DNA of 63,998 nucleotides, counting the filler, from Collodictyon triciliatum (lineage: Eukaryota): the NCBI GenBank assembly GCA_043381765.1. It is 4 parts of 4 records of this genome, joined end to end, with 100 filler letters (N's around TTAATTAATTAA, not from the genome) between each part and the next. Parts side by side here need not be neighbours in the genome. Positions count along the whole stretch, not along the records: positions 1 to 23,353 come from JBHJMP010000849.1; 3 more parts are not named here. One strand, 5' to 3'. Both the position numbers and the translations under genes were made by a program. The notes under the pieces are model-generated. The model saw only the letters and a list, made by a program, of their open reading frames with translations. It did not search any database and was not told where the DNA came from. Every line of letters begins with the position of its first letter. Positions within the stretch are counted from its first letter, which is position 1. Shown in pieces: positions 147-8,677 of this stretch.

Positions 147-3100
147 CTATTGGATTGTTATTGGGTAAGGCGTGGGAAGTGCGATACATTTGTTAATCAT
201 GCACTGATATTAATCACTAAACGTGCCCTAACTTTTCTGTCTCCATCAATTCTTTGATACAGTCACGGTTATTTGTGATTTTGGCGTGATAATTATATAA
301 TGTCATACGTATAAATAAGAAAATGTTTTTACCGAACATGTGTACATCATCGTCTGCTCTGTGAGTCTGGATTTGCAGCTACTACAATAGAAAGGCCCAG
401 TCCTCTCTGCGTGTTGATTTCGAATCCTTTCCATCTCTGCTTCATCCTTTGCTGATGCATAGTTAAGCCATTGTATAGTGTGAAAAGTGGAAGGTTTACA
501 ATAGCCTAATATGAAATTAAAGTGTAGAGGCATCTAACAAACCCAATTTGCCAGATTTTGCGTAGCTCTTAATGCCTGACCCCGTGGTGGCAATAATTGC
601 ACTCCCGTCTTCTATTTCTGTGAGACTCGTGATTTCTTCTCCAGTTTGCCGAAAAAGCCTCTGAGCTCCAAACGATGTTTGGAGCTTCGAAGTGCATGCG
701 TTCAACAACTGAGGATAAAGATATATCATGAAAAAAATGTGTATATATATTATATTTGGAATCATTGAAGGAACATCGAGACAGAAATGAAAGGTATGGA
801 AAGGGTTGCTTGTTTGAAGAAAGCTCATCGGTCAAGGGCATATGTGACAACAAATATATACCAGCTGAAATGTCTTTGGAACAATTATTTCTCTTGGTTT
901 CACCCAGTATTGCTCTGGGATAGTCTCATCCGGCTTGTACACATATATCTTTGGAGGTCTCAGTTCGGAAAACTTCGCACACGATGGAGGTGACGCTATT
1001 ATGCTGCTGTTTCCGGAGGTGGGCTTCGCTTCTACTCGAGCGCCTTTTGGTGTTAAACCTCCCCGACTTCGATTCATGGAAGAACTAGGGTCCGGTTTGA
1101 GAGAGGCGTTTGGTGTTTTGTCACCAGTCCCTTTCTTTGGAGATTTCATCACGTTCGAATTTGTACTTGCTATGTCAAAATATGATTTAAGAAGACAGCA
1201 CATCTTAAAAATCTTGATTTTGGAGCGGTTATAGTTTATTTGTCAGTTTACTTGGATGACATAACTTGCATCGATAAATCCTGATAAACAGATTAAAATA
1301 GATAAAGAATACAGAGCAAATTAAACACCATTAAATTTTTTGAACGGCTCTCCTCCACTGGCAATTATTGTCGAATTTTCTTCAACTAACATCCAGTTGT
1401 GCTGCATAAAACTTTAAATAAGTGACATTTGGAATGGGTGCTATAAATATATCTGTTTGATAGATATTTTCACTTTCCATTGCCTAAATAGAGCGATACA
1501 ATCCATCGATATTTTTCTTTTTCTAAACCTCAGTAATGGGCTCGCCCTCTTCATTAAAAAGCAATTTGATTCCAAAACTCGACATAAGCTTTTTTGTGCA
1601 CTGGTTCAACAGCTACTCAAAATAAAATTAGTAAGCTGTTAGAAAAAAGAGAAAATATAGAGTAAACTACATAAATATGCAAATGTTGCTACTATGTTTA
1701 TATCTATCACAAAATACTCACCAAGGCAAAAGTTGGTGGATATAAAACAACGACGTCATTGCCAGGCTTGTCTCCATTTTTTCGAACGTTCACCTTCGGC
1801 GGCTTTTTCATGGAAGAAGTTGCGCAGCTTGGCAACGCTTGTGTTTTTAAACGGGGTCTTTCTGATTCATTCGCCTGGAGAGCTTTTATCGTTTTTATTT
1901 ATTTATTTATATTATTATTATTATTATTATTATTATTATTATTATTATTATTATTATTATTATTATTATTATTATTATTATTATTATTATTATTATTATT
2001 ATTATTATTATTATTATTATTATTATTATTATTATTATTATTATTATTATTATTATATTATTATTTTTATTATGATTATTATTATTATTATCATCATCAT
2101 TATCATCATTATCATCATTATCATTATTATTATCATTATTATTATCATTATTATTATCATTATTATTATCATTATTATTATCATTATTATTATCATTATT
2201 ATTATCATTATTATTATCATTATTATTATCATTATTTTATCATTTTTTAAAATTTTTCCCAAATTTATTATTAGTCATATATTATTCATTTTATTATCAT
2301 TATTATTATCATTATTATTATCATTATTATTATCATTATTATTATCATTATTATTATCATTATTATTATCATTATTATTATCATTATTATCATTATTATT
2401 GTTATATATGTGTTTTGTTGTTGTTTGTTGTTTGTTGTTTACTAAGTCACATTTTTGAAATTTATGGCAAGAGATTCTAGCCCCTAATTATGAAATAATT
2501 ATTGAATGCGATTCAAACGAGGCGACAAGGGCATGTGCGATCGATTCTAAGAATACCTGCTTCGTTTGGTCGAAAATCACCACTAGATACGACAAAGACC
2601 TGACGGTTCGGATAATCTGCAAAGTCCTTCTCATGTACTTTCTCTCCAGACGCAAGGAATATGGACTTTAATGGGGCCTCACAGTTTAACTTCCGCCCAC
2701 AATTTTGCAAAAACTGTCATACAAACACAAATAAAAATAAATAAATTGTTCATATATTTAGTATTACTGTAATGTAATGATACAACATAAATTATTTTAA
2801 TTGGGTGTATTTTCTAGCTTTGGGTGTTAGATTGAGTTCAGAATAAATGTATTGCGCAAACCTCCGAATAGTTTGTGTTTATGGCCACTCTTGCAAAATC
2901 GTGGTTACCACCTGATAGAAATACTTTTGCTCTTCTCATAGGTTTAAATGGCTCACCAGCGCTTGCAAAAACTGGCTGTTTGTCTCTGATGGATAAGACA
3001 TCCTCAATCAAATTCCCGCTCATATCGTATAAAACTTTGCACCCAAAAGATAGATGGAGCTTATCTGTTATCGCATTTAACAGCTTCGAGGTGTAATGAT

Positions 3101-6100: not shown

Positions 6101-8677
6101 CTCAAATCGTGCTAGTCTCTCAGCCCTTTTTTGTTCTTCGGCTTTAGATAAAGATAGAAAGATACATAAATAGGTGAAATATTTATGTAAAATACAAAGG
6201 AATAAAATTAAAAAATACTAACAAGGCAAAACCAGCCATTAAAATAAAATGCAAAAAAAATAAATAAATGCATACTTAACAATGGTGGCGGTTTTTTATA
6301 TGGCTCTCCATGACTGACTAGAATATTACTATTATCCTCGATCTCGCTGGTGTCAAGGACAACTCTTCCATCTTCTTTGAACGCTTTCCTTATAGGAAGC
6401 TGCACACTCAAGGCGTCTCTGCAAACGTCCATAAACTTGATGGAGAGAAGAAAAAGAACGTGTTTGACTTCAATCACATATTATTTGATTCAGGCAGGAG
6501 TATTTATTGATTCTACTTTATGAAATTAATTATTTATATTCTTCATTTGAACATTTGCAAGGTGAAAAGCTATGGCTACAGTTCGCTAGCATGTATCATC
6601 AGTTATTACTTATTGTTTATTATACATTGCTACGTGCTCCTTATTGATAACATAGCATACTTATTGCTTACATTTTATTTTTTATTGCTTTATACATGAT
6701 AGTGTGCAGTGTTTGAATTTTAGTGAGATGAAAAAAGAGGAATTATATTAACTCTCTCCAAAGACTGCGGAACCGTCACTGTCATTCCCCGTCCATCAAT
6801 TACCGAACCATTTTTGTAGATATTAGCTCTCCTACTACTCCAAGCCTTCATAGGTGCACGGGCAGATGGACTCGCTAAAAAAAAAAAAAAAAAGAGAATC
6901 ATTATCTGTGCAGATATTTAGTTTTAAGGAACGACTCACTAGAATCTCTAAGAGAAAAAAAAAAGGCTAAATTGATCAAGAAAAAATCCCTTAATTTGCC
7001 CAACGAATGATAATAATAATAATAATAATAATAATAATAATAATAATAATAATAATAATAATAATAATAATAATAATAATAATAATAATAATAATAATAA
7101 TAATGATGATGATGATAGTTGACATTTATTCTGAATTTTTAATCCTACTCCCTCTTAATCCGTTAGAACGCTGCGACGCATTGAGTTTTTCATTTCCATT
7201 AGGCGCCTTTCGGTCAGAAGCTGAGAGGAGGAAAAGAAAAGAAAATTAGCATAGGCTTTAAAAATAGCCAACTTAAATACGAATATCAATATCAAGGTAT
7301 ATGTATGGAACATTTAGACCAACCTAACTTTAACCGCACATTTTCCAAAACCTCATGGGGCAGCTCCATGTTTTCAAGGCTGATAAGCGAAATGTGTTTA
7401 TTTTGGTCAAGGACACAGAGCAAATCTTCGGTTGCCTGAATTGTAAGAATACAGTAGAGTGACCAAGTATGCTTTTTCATTTACTTGATTTAAAAAAAAA
7501 ATCTGAATTGAACGTAAGGAAACATAAATTTATGGCAAAGAAAAAGTCTGGTGTTTTGGATTACTTAAAGAAAAAAAAAAGGCACGTAAATGATTTCGAG
7601 TATATTTTTTTCAGGCATTTAATGCGACATAAAATTGAATGGAGTTATGAATACTCTGATGCTTATCATATTTGAATCCAGGAGAATCTCGCACAGGGAT
7701 GTGTTGCTTTTCAACGCATCACATAAATGTCTGATTCCGCCCCCACTGATCGAGCACCTTTCCAGATCCAAGACCTGCAATCGACATCCCGAAACACACA
7801 AGTAGGACGCAATTGATCTTAGACCATCATCGGAGACAGCATTCAGACCCAAGGAAACTTCCTCCAAGGTTGGTACAGTCTCGTTGAGCTCTGCAAAAGC
7901 CTTGGACACGCCATCTGCGGTGAACACATTCCCACGGAACGAGACTCGTCTCAACTTTGTCTGCGTGTTTGACCTTAGCGTCTTTGCAAAGTAAATTATC
8001 CCGTGGTCGCCAATCAGGTTGAAATCAAGCTTAAGCTCCTGGAGTGTAGATCCACTCAGCAGTGGGACCAAAGCCACAATTCCTTCGTTTGATATGCGGT
8101 TGGACCCTAGCGAAAGGCTGCGCAGAGTTGGGATTAAGGAGAGTGCCGGCCCAAGAACAGCGCAACCTATTTGCATTTTGCATGTAGAACACGAGTGACT
8201 CATAGGCTGTGGAAAAAAAAGCAAAGTCCAGGTGAAAAAAAACATATATAAATAAAACAGTAGCTTTAAAAAGAAAAGGGAATACGAGTGCGAGGATGTC
8301 ACGAATCACAAATCATCAACAAACAAAATAACAAAAAAAAATAATAATAATAATAATAAGACAAATGAATAAGTAAACAAGTCAATATTGAAGTTGCTTC
8401 AACCTCTGTCGGAAATGGAATTGCCACGAAGCGAGAGGGCAGGCCACTTTGGCACGTCTTCCACTATCGACTTTTCGGCAAGAATGTCAGATAGAAGGAT
8501 ACATCCGTCGTCGCCAAGGCCCTTGTGATTGATCCGCACGACCGCTTCGCTGCCTGCCGGACTTGTGCTGTTTGGCTTCTGCCCACTTGCGTCGGCGGCG
8601 GATGCGACCAGCGACTTTCCGTTACTGTTCACAAGACTGGAGAGCACGCTGTGATACAGCTCACCAATGTCTGCCAT
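147..8677 (-). CDS. Multi-exon protein: N-terminal ribonuclease-inhibitor-like LRRs, 8 doublecortin (DCX)/KHA-like repeats, C-terminal Cys-rich tail
   Basis: LRR motifs (LSLRGNSISDRG, LSLGSNRISNEG, LKLDFNLIGDHG, LDLERCSISGGG) at 7650-8520. Frame-consistent GT-AG exons (~7323-7436, ~7147-7220, ~6753-6873) link them to repeats of the type R-x-x-VYKNG...VP.SLE|LL..C..KL...RK.F..DG..I.D...I.D...I.VS.GEP(Y/F)K. The last exons give YCSSC...YTCS|CMINKC with a stop at 147; an unspliced alternative stop lies at 303. Confidence 0.75.
1906..2400. repeat. Intronic (TTA)n microsatellite grading into a (TCATTATTATTA)n 12-mer
   Basis: Direct reading; lies in an intron of the LRR-DCX gene. Confidence 0.95.
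7009..7115. repeat. Intronic (ATA)n microsatellite
   Basis: Direct reading. Confidence 0.95.

Follow-up and report, generated by a model that had tools for sequence, protein, structure and literature searches.

An intron-rich gene of Collodictyon triciliatum predicted to encode an LRR protein with eight DCX-type repeats, a candidate microtubule scaffold

The stretch of DNA analysed here (the window; 63,998 nucleotides, filler included) carries at positions 147-8677 one expressed gene with many introns, not two genes; the flagellate it comes from is related to Diphylleia (CRuMs). The predicted product of about 1300 residues combines a leucine-rich repeat (LRR) head, eight DCX repeats and a tail with at least the first half of a ZZ-like zinc finger, and is probably (a chance of about 0.6) a multivalent scaffold of the microtubule lattice, with the LRR and ZZ ends used for docking. 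To date, the layout of an LRR head and eight DCX domains is known only from Diphylleia-like flagellates, and it has never been studied.

Gene model and the Diphylleia orthologue

The model, taken from the minus strand by coordinates, runs from 8677 down to 147 and comprises 27 exons with an open frame of 1301 aa. All 26 introns are of the GT-AG type and 83-674 nt long, and the GC content of this model is 44.7% in exons versus 26.1% in introns. The closest counterpart of the encoded protein is an unannotated complete Trinity transcript ORF of Diphylleia rotans (EukProt EP00002 P040044, hereafter P0012; 1338 aa), to which no name or study is attached. A single BLASTP alignment of 1288 columns (aa 48-1283 of the model, 37-1296 of P0012) has 39.9% identity, and, judging by this alignment, the window gene is the orthologue of P0012. 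The LRR head is common to both proteins, as are the order of the eight DCX repeats, the six-Cys cluster that separates repeat 4 from repeat 5, and the direct abutment of repeats 5 and 6. They differ in the linker from the LRR to repeat 1, which is longer in P0012, and in the C-terminal ZZ-like finger, which is complete in P0012, whereas the window holds its first half only.

The X2 contigs, which belong to a 95-99% identical relative and to a library whose type was taken as RNA by guess, show no introns at 8403-8167 and 7654-7436; they connect exon 1 with 2, 2 with 3 and 4 with 5. Exon 1 (8404-8677, ATG at 8677-8675) encodes the N-terminal cap and the first ribonuclease-inhibitor (RI)-type LRRs (aa 1-92), and its alignment to P0012 starts at aa 37; the intron-less contig over its junction with exon 2 (8404-8166) has the joint at 8163/8401 (cut +3). 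Exon 2 (7655-8166), the core of the LRR domain (171 aa), is joined by a contig to exon 3 (7324-7435), which encodes the final LRRs or C-terminal cap and is matched by tblastn with P0012 at E 3.5e-6. For this joint, the reported position was 7432/7654, two letters lying in between; we read it as 7435-7655 with one synonymous change at 7433. Exon 4 (7149-7220), a basic linker SDRKAPNGNEKLNASQRSNGLRG, is covered over 7149-7218 by contig record 1, whose loose end of 100 letters opens with the reverse complement of 6874-6845, a splice from exon 4 to exon 5.

The sequence-only reading had joined the LRR block and the repeats into one polypeptide by matching splicing frames on paper, and two adjacent genes, one for the LRR and one for the DCX array, would account for the same frames. 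The junction from exon 3 (7324) to exon 4 (7220) is indeed spanned by no X2 contig, runs X1 and X3 gave no contigs, and conservation is low in the linker region, with 26% identity and 19 gap columns. Against this stand the stop met within 12 codons when exon 3 is left unspliced, the contigs that link LRR exons 2 and 3 and that link exon 4 with exon 5, the first of the DCX exons, and the occurrence of an LRR with a DCX array on one transcript in P0012, where all eight repeats lie in one complete ORF, as well as in two further Diphylleia paralogues. Because the P0012 ORF is collinear with the model and the X2 contigs confirm three junctions, the locus is one gene, and a division into two is very improbable. 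The single polypeptide is thus upheld, and the junction peptides proposed for it, KL-A-SDRKAP and RG-T-SPSARAPMKAW, are given exactly by the model at 7324-7220 and 7149-6874.

Domains of the predicted protein

The N-terminus is predicted to be a horseshoe of about 8-9 RI-type LRRs. The Pfam model LRR_6 scores 64.3 bits (cutoff 23.4) over 7619-8305, and the best solved relatives are ribonuclease inhibitors (69-97 bits), with several NLR proteins reaching up to 51 bits. The axonemal proteins RSP15, LRRC34 and DRC5/TCTE1 match at 31-44 bits, below both of these groups, and a specific orthology of the head to RNH1, NLRs, RSP15, LRRC34 or DRC5/TCTE1 could not be established.

The eight repeats lie at about 6850-6290, 5969-5626, 5130-4735, 4560-4127, 3330-2940, 2939-2557, 1811-1329 and 969-560, where they had been proposed. 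Repeat 1 is encoded by exons 5 (6753-6874, N-terminal half, 50% identity to P0012 in tblastn) and 6 (6276-6435, C-terminal half, Pfam Ubiquitin_DCDC1 at E 6.5e-4), followed by the charged linker 1, EEQKRAERLARFEETEKL, in exon 7 (6065-6141). The two halves of repeat 2 occupy exons 8 (5895-5969) and 9 (5626-5782), linker 2 exon 10 (5324-5421), and the halves of repeat 3 exons 11 (5053-5130) and 12 (4735-4882, 61% identity to P0012 in tblastn). Exon 13 (4493-4625), the acceptor of which is set by frame only, carries linker 3 and the start of the N-terminal half of repeat 4; this half is closed by a 28-nt micro-exon 14 (4356-4383, IILPRNYTS), with RIILPRN common to P0012, and exon 15 (4127-4272) encodes the C-terminal half of this most divergent repeat. 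Exon 16 (3830-3924) encodes the conserved six-Cys cluster and exon 17 (3599-3732) linker 4b. Exon 18 (3224-3361, 59% identical to P0012) holds the N-terminal half of repeat 5, exon 19 (2862-3083, 57% identity in tblastn) the C-terminal half of repeat 5 and the N-terminal half of repeat 6 with no linker, and exon 20 (2557-2713) the remainder of repeat 6. Linker 6 and the N-terminal half of repeat 7 lie in exon 21 (1722-1882), the acceptor at 1882 being favoured over 1861 because AALQA is common to P0012; AAT-type microsatellites fill the 674-nt intron ahead of this exon. The C-terminal half of repeat 7 is divided between exons 22 (1529-1612, 62% identity to P0012 in tblastn) and 23 (1329-1401). 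Exon 24 (862-1169; net charge +7, pI 10.2) encodes the basic, Ser/Pro-rich linker 7 and the N-terminal half of repeat 8, and exon 25 (543-708) its C-terminal half. For exon 25, splicing from the donor at 543 was preferred to reading on as far as the stop at 519-517, because the P0012 alignment then extends into the tail, with a score rising from 922 to 946 bits.

All eight repeats are predicted to be DCX-type beta-grasp domains. The Pfam DCX family (PF03607) passes its 22-bit cutoff on three half-domains, all single exon fragments: exon 12 (28.3 bits), exon 25 (25.5 bits) and exon 19 (22.6 bits), the last also matching DCX2_DCDC1 (26.5 bits) and Ubiquitin_DCDC1 (26.7 bits). Weaker, sub-threshold matches to DCDC1-type DCX models were obtained on three further exon fragments, and P0012 scores 108.5 bits for DCX and 110.4 bits for DCX2_DCDC1. 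A local DCX profile of 90 positions was made from 143 domains. Their source proteins, none from Diphylleia, had been retrieved by searching with the C-half profile of the window itself, and those scanned with Pfam were independently DCX-positive. Against this local profile, the joined repeats 1-8 score 59.1, 32.8, 56.9, 12.6, 52.7, 33.9, 54.3 and 54.8 bits, and each outscores all of its 200 shuffles, the best of which did not exceed 7.2 bits for any repeat or 4.5 bits for repeat 4. For repeat 4 the DCX match is poor in P0012 too (8.5 bits). The hhalign probabilities of the eight repeats are 95.4-99.5% (repeat 1, 99.3%; repeat 2, 98.6%; repeat 4, 95.4%; repeat 6, 97.9%), versus 0.3-1.6% for three control segments, so that the DCX-like character proposed from sequence is borne out by Pfam, the local profile and hhalign alike. 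The three best PDB matches of the C-half profile are also DCX domains, with weak E-values of 0.03-0.26 (6b4a, 9y9z, 2dnf).

The fold itself was tested on repeat 5 of the orthologue, which is 60% identical to repeat 5 of the window protein. In the AlphaFold model of P0012 repeats 5-6, pLDDT exceeds 90 over the C-terminal half of repeat 5, and this repeat superposes on 6b4a, 5ikc, 2dnf, 1mjd and 4atu with target TM-scores of 0.5-0.7 at 20-25% identity. The first 20 Foldseek matches in the PDB are all DCX domains (TgDCX of Toxoplasma, human DCX N-DC, DCLK, DCDC2), and several come from structures determined on microtubules (4atu, 2xrp, 6rf8). By structure prediction, repeat 5 of the orthologue thus has the DCX fold; repeat 6 was modelled with low confidence (pLDDT 52-62).

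A phase-0 intron falls at the identical alignment column in all eight repeats. Neighbouring repeats within the window protein are 11-41% identical and their linkers span 0-85 residues, whereas each repeat is 30-63% identical to its P0012 counterpart (41% for repeat 4). Since the repeats are closer to these counterparts than to their own neighbours, the eight-domain order predates the split of the two species, and most likely the array arose before this split via tandem duplication of a two-exon unit.

The six-Cys cluster between repeats 4 and 5 (CC-x11-CxC-x7-CC; aa 733 in the model, aa 766 in P0012) is 45% identical to P0012 over exon 16 and matched no Pfam family. The Cys-rich tail described earlier is retained in part. 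Exon 26 (333-451, ...FYCSSCKSRLTEQTMMYTCS), with FYCSSC...YTCS, can be aligned to the initial half of the ZZ-like finger in the orthologue, and the distance from GKLA to the first Cys is 22 residues in both tails. The P0012 tail scores 25.6 bits for ZZ_ADA2, under the 27.5 cutoff, and exon 26 alone gave no ZZ match in Pfam. The tentative exon 27 (147-203, CMINKCIALPTPYPITIQ-stop) uses the sole in-window phase-0 acceptor after 333 that gives cysteines, and this part of the earlier tail is unlike the finger's second half in P0012. That second half was not found in the window, and the true last exon or exons may lie beyond its left edge.

A microtubule scaffold and its alternatives

Microtubule binding, which we infer from known DCX domains, would place the repeats on the tubulin lattice at the inter-protofilament grooves, in the manner of solved DCX domains. 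Eight domains per chain could provide high avidity and staple several adjacent sites along or across protofilaments, and the LRR head and the zinc-finger tail could serve at either end to dock proteins and so attach components to stable microtubule arrays, for which flagellar roots or axonemes are candidates. Canonical DCX lattice sites are several nanometres apart. Repeats 5 and 6 abut without a linker and therefore cannot both occupy such sites. The basic charge weakly supports microtubule binding: the whole protein has a pI of 8.8 and a net charge of +18, the net charge is at least +1 in seven of the eight repeats, repeat 5 being acidic (pI 5.2), and linkers 0 and 7 are strongly basic. By eye, Lys or Arg stands immediately ahead of the first strand in all eight repeats. 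According to an excerpt of PMC7048138, positive charge near the start of a DCX domain, a site to which these residues may correspond, is linked to efficient microtubule binding. In an excerpt of PMC1550402, one DCX repeat is described as binding tubulin and two as bundling microtubules. Mammalian DCX is reported to bind the interdimer and TgDCX the intradimer interface, the latter in a pattern that repeats laterally across protofilaments 5-9 of the conoid fibre (PMC12819142, in excerpt).

Homology is no guarantee of microtubule binding, since, as the same excerpt of PMC7048138 has it, some orthologues with a DCX domain fail to bind even though their contact residues are conserved. The eight beta-grasp repeats could instead be protein-protein or self-association modules, as proposed for KHA domains and for beta-grasp domains of the CIDE-N/PB1 type, which are related, in a soluble or membrane-proximal scaffold whose partners are recruited by the LRR and the zinc finger. 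We consider this unlikely, but it has evidence of its own. KHA (PF11834) scores 75.7 bits (cutoff 29.6) on repeat 5 of P0012 and reaches 15.9 and 13.7 bits, both weak, on two exons of the window; from rank 22 on, the Foldseek matches of that repeat include CIDE-N domains and di-ubiquitin. Repeats 4 and 6 have diverged, the window's repeat 5 has an acidic pI, and DCX domains are called "protein-interaction platforms" in the abstract of PMC1550402. On the window exons, however, DCX-family models reach 22.6-28.3 bits versus 13.7-15.9 for KHA, the structural matches ranked ahead of CIDE-N include DCX domains bound to microtubules, no potassium-channel context accompanies the repeats, and the array as a whole is basic. 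Of the two names in the initial DCX/KHA-like label, DCX is thus the better fit, and KHA-like is a fair secondary description.

An origin as the diphylleid orthologue of animal or holozoan DCDC1 (DCDC5), with an acquired LRR head, was also considered and is improbable. Once Diphylleia is set aside, the C-half profile finds its best matches in DCDC1-like proteins (from Ptychodera, Salpingoeca, Chromosphaera and Macrostomum) that are 1500-2150 aa long and are hit over 5-6 stretches, and the DCDC1-specific families PF24478 and PF25510 match window exons and P0012. In true DCDC1-like proteins, however, one domain covers positions 2-104 of DCX2_DCDC1, with 180-280 bits per protein, while the window and P0012 match only positions 37-80 and 30-79 of 105. 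Ricin B is absent from the window exons and P0012 in Pfam, and an LRR from all DCDC1-like matches scanned. In BLASTP, the next-best matches after P0012 are the D. rotans proteins P0013/P0162 and P0018/P0164 (65-68 bits); the rest of the best 8 rows consist of LRR proteins and exon 2 of the model itself, with no DCDC1-like protein among the matches listed. The part-domain matches to DCX2_DCDC1, the missing Ricin B and the lack of an LRR in the scanned DCDC1-like proteins led to rejection of this orthology.

Relation to known proteins

The LRR-(DCX)8 architecture had been put forward as unfamiliar, and the searches agree: an LRR occurs in just 3 of the 150 best DCX-array proteins drawn from 1.84 billion representatives (Pfam was run on 127 of the 150), all three from D. 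rotans. Judging by these 150 matches, the combination does not appear to be a known widespread family, and no description of it was found in the literature searched. In the D. rotans family, the LRR block precedes an array of 5, 8 or 11 DCX domains. Paralogues P0013/P0162 carry an LRR and 11 DCX-like stretches on one transcript, and P0018/P0164 ankyrin repeats, an LRR and 5 DCX domains, with a CxxC...CxxC tail in P0164. Both resemble the window protein in an N-terminal RI-type LRR followed by a DCX array, and differ from it in overall identity (about 22-25%) and repeat number, P0018/P0164 by the extra ankyrin repeats and P0013 by the absence of a Cys-rich tail.

The N-terminal 250 residues are of the same 28-29-residue LRR type as RNH1, the LRR arms of NLRs and RSP15/LRRC34/DRC5. 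One NLRC3 LRR is 37% identical to the head; unlike NLRs, however, the gene product has no NACHT, CARD or PYD domain in Pfam. The DCDC1 (DCDC5)-type proteins of animals, choanoflagellates and ichthyosporeans, the next-best matches of the repeat profile, are also long and have at least five DCX-type beta-grasp domains, but they lack LRR and ZZ, often carry Ricin B, and contain full-length DCX2_DCDC1 and Ubiquitin_DCDC1 domains that the window protein does not fully match. Doublecortin, DCLK, DCDC2 and TgDCX share the fold of the orthologue's repeat 5, and some have been solved on tubulin lattices. These proteins have one or two DCX domains accompanied by a kinase, a partial p25-alpha or nothing, whereas in the window protein eight predicted DCX domains are strung behind an LRR.

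Gene model and evidence for a single gene

The gene under study occupies the minus strand from 8677 to 147. The DNA here is eukaryotic and AT-rich, its introns are short and its microsatellites long, and the stop-to-stop frames of this strand contain many short coding pieces. A coordinate reading of the minus strand joins these pieces into 27 exons separated by 26 introns and leaves a frame open for 1301 aa. All 26 introns are of the GT-AG type, their length varies from 83 to 674 nt (median 148), and the GC content of exons is 44.7% vs 26.1% in introns. The two junction peptides and the eight repeat positions proposed in the sequence-only reading match this 27-exon model exactly. 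Two introns (1900-2460 and 6995-7110) are occupied by long microsatellites of the AAT/ATT type and of compound (AATAATGAT-like) make-up, the 674-nt intron 20 is mostly repeat, and the window opens with a run of about 70 A within 1-70. Upstream, in head-to-head orientation, lies a gene for a cyclic-nucleotide phosphodiesterase on the plus strand (10395-13791). Its stretch 10395-12230 matches PDEase_I with 128.9 bits, the domain ends on 12643-13791, and the gene has long, Ser/Pro-rich flanks of low complexity. An ORF on the minus strand at 18633-19460 carries an FG-GAP repeat (PF14312, 49.2 bits) and is unrelated to the gene described here.

The leucine-rich repeat (LRR) head and the doublecortin (DCX) repeats are read as one gene because read contigs lack the introns, a collinear ORF exists in a related species, and exon 3 runs into a stop within 12 codons when it is not spliced. 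Contigs from three public read runs (X1, X2 and X3) were compared with the window over 7112-8900 only. Four contigs of X2, whose library is guessed to be RNA and whose contigs are 95-99% identical to the window, matched this interval, and the introns are absent from them; X1 and X3 gave no contig matching 7112-8900. One X2 contig joins 8404 to 8166 and one joins 7655 to 7435, the latter joint having been output as 7432/7654 plus two letters and read as the predicted junction with a synonymous change at 7433. An X2 contig that covers exon 4 (7149-7218), which encodes the basic linker, continues for 100 further letters; the first 30 of these correspond, in reverse complement, to 6874-6845, where the first DCX exon begins. 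The proposal of one transcript across the linker is thus borne out from 7149 to 6874, but the junction from 7324 to 7220 is crossed by no contig of the three runs over 7112-8900. Seven base differences between X2 and the window were listed, four of them synonymous and three conservative (L to M, I to V, A to T).

The collinear ORF, P0012, is a Diphylleia rotans Trinity transcript product of 1338 aa with a complete-ORF label, and it was the top match of an exhaustive profile search. The spliced model aligns with it in a single BLASTP alignment with 39.9% identity over 1288 columns (aa 48-1283 vs 37-1296). Together with the X2 contigs and the read-through stop of exon 3, this agrees with the earlier claim that the LRR block and eight repeats belong to one polypeptide. 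Two adjacent genes, one with LRRs and one with multiple DCX domains, would be a most improbable explanation of the same exons. No further DCX gene turned up when the window was scanned in all six frames. The LRR + DCX-array architecture is confirmed as real, conserved and expressed, where expression refers to the guessed RNA of X2 and to P0012, which is a transcript.

LRR head, DCX repeats and cysteine-rich regions

Exon 2 alone scores 64.3 bits with the Pfam model LRR_6 (PF13516; cutoff 23.4), and about 8-9 LRR units of 28-29 residues can be recognized by eye at aa 48-300. Among solved structures, ribonuclease inhibitors (RI) are the best relatives of the LRR exon (up to 97 bits). Behind them rank designed LRR proteins, NLR proteins through their LRR arms, RanGAP1 and several axonemal proteins, of which RSP15, LRRC34 and DRC5/TCTE1 score 31-44 bits. 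An NLR-like immune sensor was considered and rejected because the protein is without a NACHT domain: the LRR arm alone resembles NLRC3, and Pfam scans of the window exons and P0012 revealed no NACHT/NB-ARC or other NLR domain. The RI-type LRR exon also matches PDB 9fqr chain Km (473 residues; 50 bits over 157 residues), which is labelled 'Tubulin alpha-3 chain', probably in error.

Eight repeats of about 80 aa (R1-R8) follow the basic linker. The Pfam DCX model (PF03607, cutoff 22) recognizes three single-exon half-domains with 28.3, 25.5 and 22.6 bits, DCDC1-type DCX models match three more exons weakly, and P0012 reaches 108.5 bits on PF03607 in 3 stretches. A local DCX profile was built from 143 domains of non-Diphylleia proteins and scored on the joined repeats, giving 59.1, 32.8, 56.9, 12.6, 52.7, 33.9, 54.3 and 54.8 bits for R1 to R8; the training proteins had been found via the window's own C-half profile, and those scanned were independently DCX-positive in Pfam. 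The maximum over 200 shuffles of each repeat was at most 7.2 bits, and R4 is marginal in this test. Pairs of window and Diphylleia repeats aligned to the DCX alignment by hhalign with probabilities of 95.4-99.5% in all eight cases, and three control segments with 0.3-1.6%. All eight repeats therefore stand as DCX homologues, above shuffles with the local profile and by hhalign, as the sequence-only reading had supposed.

Structure prediction was applied to repeats 5-6 of P0012, not to the spliced protein of the window, the orthologue's repeat 5 being 60% identical to that of the window. The model has the beta-beta-alpha-beta-beta order, with pLDDT >90 over the C-half of repeat 5, and in a Foldseek search against PDB the first 20 matches were all DCX domains, including TgDCX (6b4a/9y9z), the N-DC domain of human DCX, DCLK and DCDC2, at target TM-scores of 0.5-0.7; folds of the CIDE-N and ubiquitin type rank later. 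The expected DCX fold was thus recovered for repeat 5 of the orthologue, but repeat 6 was modelled with low confidence (pLDDT 52-62). In the alignment used for folding, the C-half exon of repeat 6 was stacked on repeat 5, and repeat 6 was therefore almost without alignment depth. A profile of the N-halves (A2) gave chance thioredoxin matches alone against PDB (E 0.4), and the best ESM Atlas match of P0012 (0.76) was a meaningless one to a bacterial hypothetical cluster. The KHA domain is the C-terminus of plant Shaker-type K+ channels. With its model (PF11834, cutoff 29.6) window exons score 15.9 and 13.7 bits and repeat 5 of P0012 75.7 bits, and no potassium-channel domain accompanies the KHA-like repeats in Pfam scans of the window exons and P0012. 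In the double label 'DCX/KHA-like', DCX models and structures fit better, and KHA-like is only a fair secondary label.

A phase-0 intron splits all eight repeats at the same column, between ...P-x-x-F/L-E/x and L/F-L-x-x-C. Because this column is common to the eight repeats, it points to a putative tandem duplication of a two-exon unit as their origin. One extra intron each is found in the N-half of repeat 4 and in the C-half of repeat 7. On the minus strand at 2862-3083, a single exon holds the repeat 5 C-half together with the repeat 6 N-half, and these domains abut without a linker, as they do in Diphylleia; an intron may have been lost here, or the unit of duplication may be shifted by half a domain. 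Each repeat is 30-63% identical to its P0012 counterpart (R8 63%, R5 60%, R1 and R3 54%, R7 49%, R4 41%, R6 31%, R2 30%) vs 11-41% to its neighbours in the same protein. Since identity to the counterpart exceeds that to the neighbours, the order of the eight domains is old and the repeats are individually constrained. Several linker lengths are also kept between the two diphylleids. The whole protein is basic (pI 8.8, net +18), linkers 0 and 7 strongly so, repeat 5 is acidic, and Lys/Arg precedes strand 1 in all eight repeats (by eye). Between repeats 4 and 5 lies a six-Cys cluster, CC-x11-CxC-x7-CC (3830-3924, minus strand; model aa 733-757), which is kept in the Diphylleia orthologue at aa 766 and matches no Pfam family. 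It could form a small metal site or a lipidation patch.

At the 3' end, exon 25 reads through to a stop at 519-517. Splicing from 543 to 451 instead yields a tail (...KDEAEMERIRNQHAERTGPFYCSSCKSRLTEQTMMYTCS) with a 22-residue spacing to the first cysteine, as in P0012, and extends the alignment. The window tail continues as CxxC-x12-C, after which the pattern is lost, and exon 451-333 has no ZZ match in Pfam. In P0012 the tail runs on as a ZZ-like finger, which stays narrowly short of the ZZ_ADA2 cutoff (25.6 vs 27.5 bits) and also below that of ZZ (14.4 vs 21.4 bits). After 333, one phase-0 acceptor alone gives cysteines within the window (203-147). The cysteine-rich tail described earlier is therefore retained for the first half of the finger, spaced as in P0012, but its ending at 203-147 is unlike the second half, for which no counterpart was found in the window. 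The true last exon may lie to the left of the window, or it may have been lost. In metagenomes searched for an extension of the locus, a 35-nt exact pattern had no matches, and of the 77 matches to P0012 patterns tblastn confirmed none.

Distribution of LRR-DCX arrays and relation to DCDC1

A 51-position profile of seven C-halves was run on 1.84 billion representative proteins and yielded 242 of them at E <=0.001; the following comparisons cover the best 150 of these 242. With phmmer, the LRR region matched three of the best 150 (P0012, P0018 and P0013) even at E up to 10, and Pfam found LRR families in the same three alone among the 127 scanned, the 23 left out being each shorter than 200 aa. 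All three LRR-bearing DCX-array proteins among the best 150 are D. rotans transcripts, which upholds the earlier impression that LRR-(DCX)8 is an unfamiliar architecture and not a known widespread family. The D. rotans paralogues differ in their composition: P0013/P0162 combines LRRs with 11 DCX-like stretches, and P0018/P0164 combines ankyrin repeats, LRRs and 5 DCX domains, with a CxxC...CxxC tail in P0164 (by eye) that has no Pfam ZZ match. Because these paralogues have the same layout logic, LRR-DCX arrays therefore form a small expanded family in the diphylleid lineage. Word-based searches, an insensitive method, returned 10 LRR/NLR-type proteins and no DCX protein with the LRR exon, and itself and three LRR proteins alone with P0012, used whole or as residues 330-1260.

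The other high scorers among the best 150 comprise streptophyte algal proteins and DCDC1-like proteins from animals, one choanoflagellate and one ichthyosporean. Further partners found with DCX arrays are Ricin B, EF-hands, CAP-Gly (with or without PDZ), RasGAP with CH, a Cep120-like region, a kinase or a Ras domain. In the unnamed or little-studied proteins P0063, P0074, P0092, P0106, P0056 and P0020, DCX arrays are fused to cytoskeletal modules, for example CH + RasGAP (IQGAP-like), PDZ + CAP-Gly, CAP-Gly alone, EF-hands or a Cep120-like region. That the protein is a DCDC1 orthologue with an added LRR is unlikely. The DCDC1 model PF24478 (105 positions) reaches at best 26.5 bits in the window (cutoff 27.8), covering 37-80, and its best stretch on P0012 is 30-79, whereas true DCDC1-like proteins cover 2-104. 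PF25510 gives at best 26.7 bits in the window (cutoff 30.4) and a total of 62.3 bits on P0012, where the best stretch lies over repeat 5 and spans 25-95 of 95 positions; these scores probably reflect a general resemblance to DCX domains. Many DCDC1-like matches carry a Ricin B-type lectin domain, and Pfam detected none on the window exons or P0012. DCDC1 orthology was rejected on these grounds, with partial DCDC1 models, no Ricin domain, and Diphylleia paralogues as the nearest BLASTP relatives after P0012.

No description of a protein combining a DCX domain with an LRR domain was found in the papers searched. Two papers that combine doublecortin domain, leucine-rich repeat and axoneme are human-disease reviews on other subjects, judging by titles and the starts of abstracts, and a term search found neither 'leucine' nor 'LRR' in the DCX-superfamily survey PMC1550402. 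Doublecortin was mentioned nowhere in the literature searched on Diphylleia, Collodictyon and CRuMs. The LRR-DCX protein joins well-known modules (LRR, DCX, ZZ-like) in a new combination restricted to one lineage; public transcriptome data contain it, and it is undescribed as far as these searches reach.

Possible function and comparison with known systems

Solved DCX domains bind tubulin lattices between protofilaments, and modules such as the LRR horseshoe and the zinc-finger tail typically dock other proteins. By analogy, the LRR-DCX protein is probably a microtubule scaffold, a reading to which we give a probability of about 0.55-0.6. Eight DCX domains on one chain would provide high-avidity binding to the lattice, the array could span several neighbouring sites along or across protofilaments, and the LRR horseshoe and zinc-finger tail could tether other parts to the decorated lattice. 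Axonemal complexes repeatedly contain RI-type LRRs, which hints weakly at flagellar structures, and the basic charge and the Lys/Arg before strand 1 are indirect hints of tubulin binding. Few modules read microtubule-lattice geometry; DCX domains are among them and, to our knowledge, have been studied so far as singles or pairs. A chain of eight, with positions kept between distant diphylleids and with two docking flanks, would be a natural test case for how multivalency and domain order shape microtubule arrays. We know of almost no molecular exploration of the cytoskeleton in CRuMs, a deep-branching lineage, where DCX arrays arose outside the animal DCDC1 family and were combined with different partners. 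The finding opens no long-standing question; the practical gain is modest and consists of a clean gene model, an orthologue pair and three paralogues for expression and binding work.

According to published reports, mammalian DCX binds at the interdimer interface (PMC12819142), and one DCX repeat gives tubulin binding and two give bundling (PMC1550402). Several observations count against a simple eight-site binding model: repeats 5 and 6 have no linker, repeat 4 is a degenerate DCX domain in both species, repeat 5 is acidic, and PMC7048138 shows that microtubule binding can be absent from close DCX orthologues even when the contact residues are conserved. A protein-interaction scaffold without a microtubule role is a possible alternative, although clearly a less probable one than the microtubule scaffold. 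More doubtful still is a specialized form of lattice binding, in which the fixed order of eight non-equivalent DCX domains would act as a single-chain template laying down or locking a defined patch of the microtubule lattice, for example in the curved roots of microtubules along the diphylleid feeding groove. Other root or flagellar components would then be docked through its LRR and ZZ ends, and the 5- and 11-domain paralogues would join as a lineage-specific toolkit for array geometry. Such a template would correspond, within one polypeptide, to the separate TgDCX molecules that form a lateral row on the Toxoplasma conoid fibre. The LRR-DCX protein may also resemble tubulin chaperone E, in which CAP-Gly, LRR and ubiquitin-like domains are combined.
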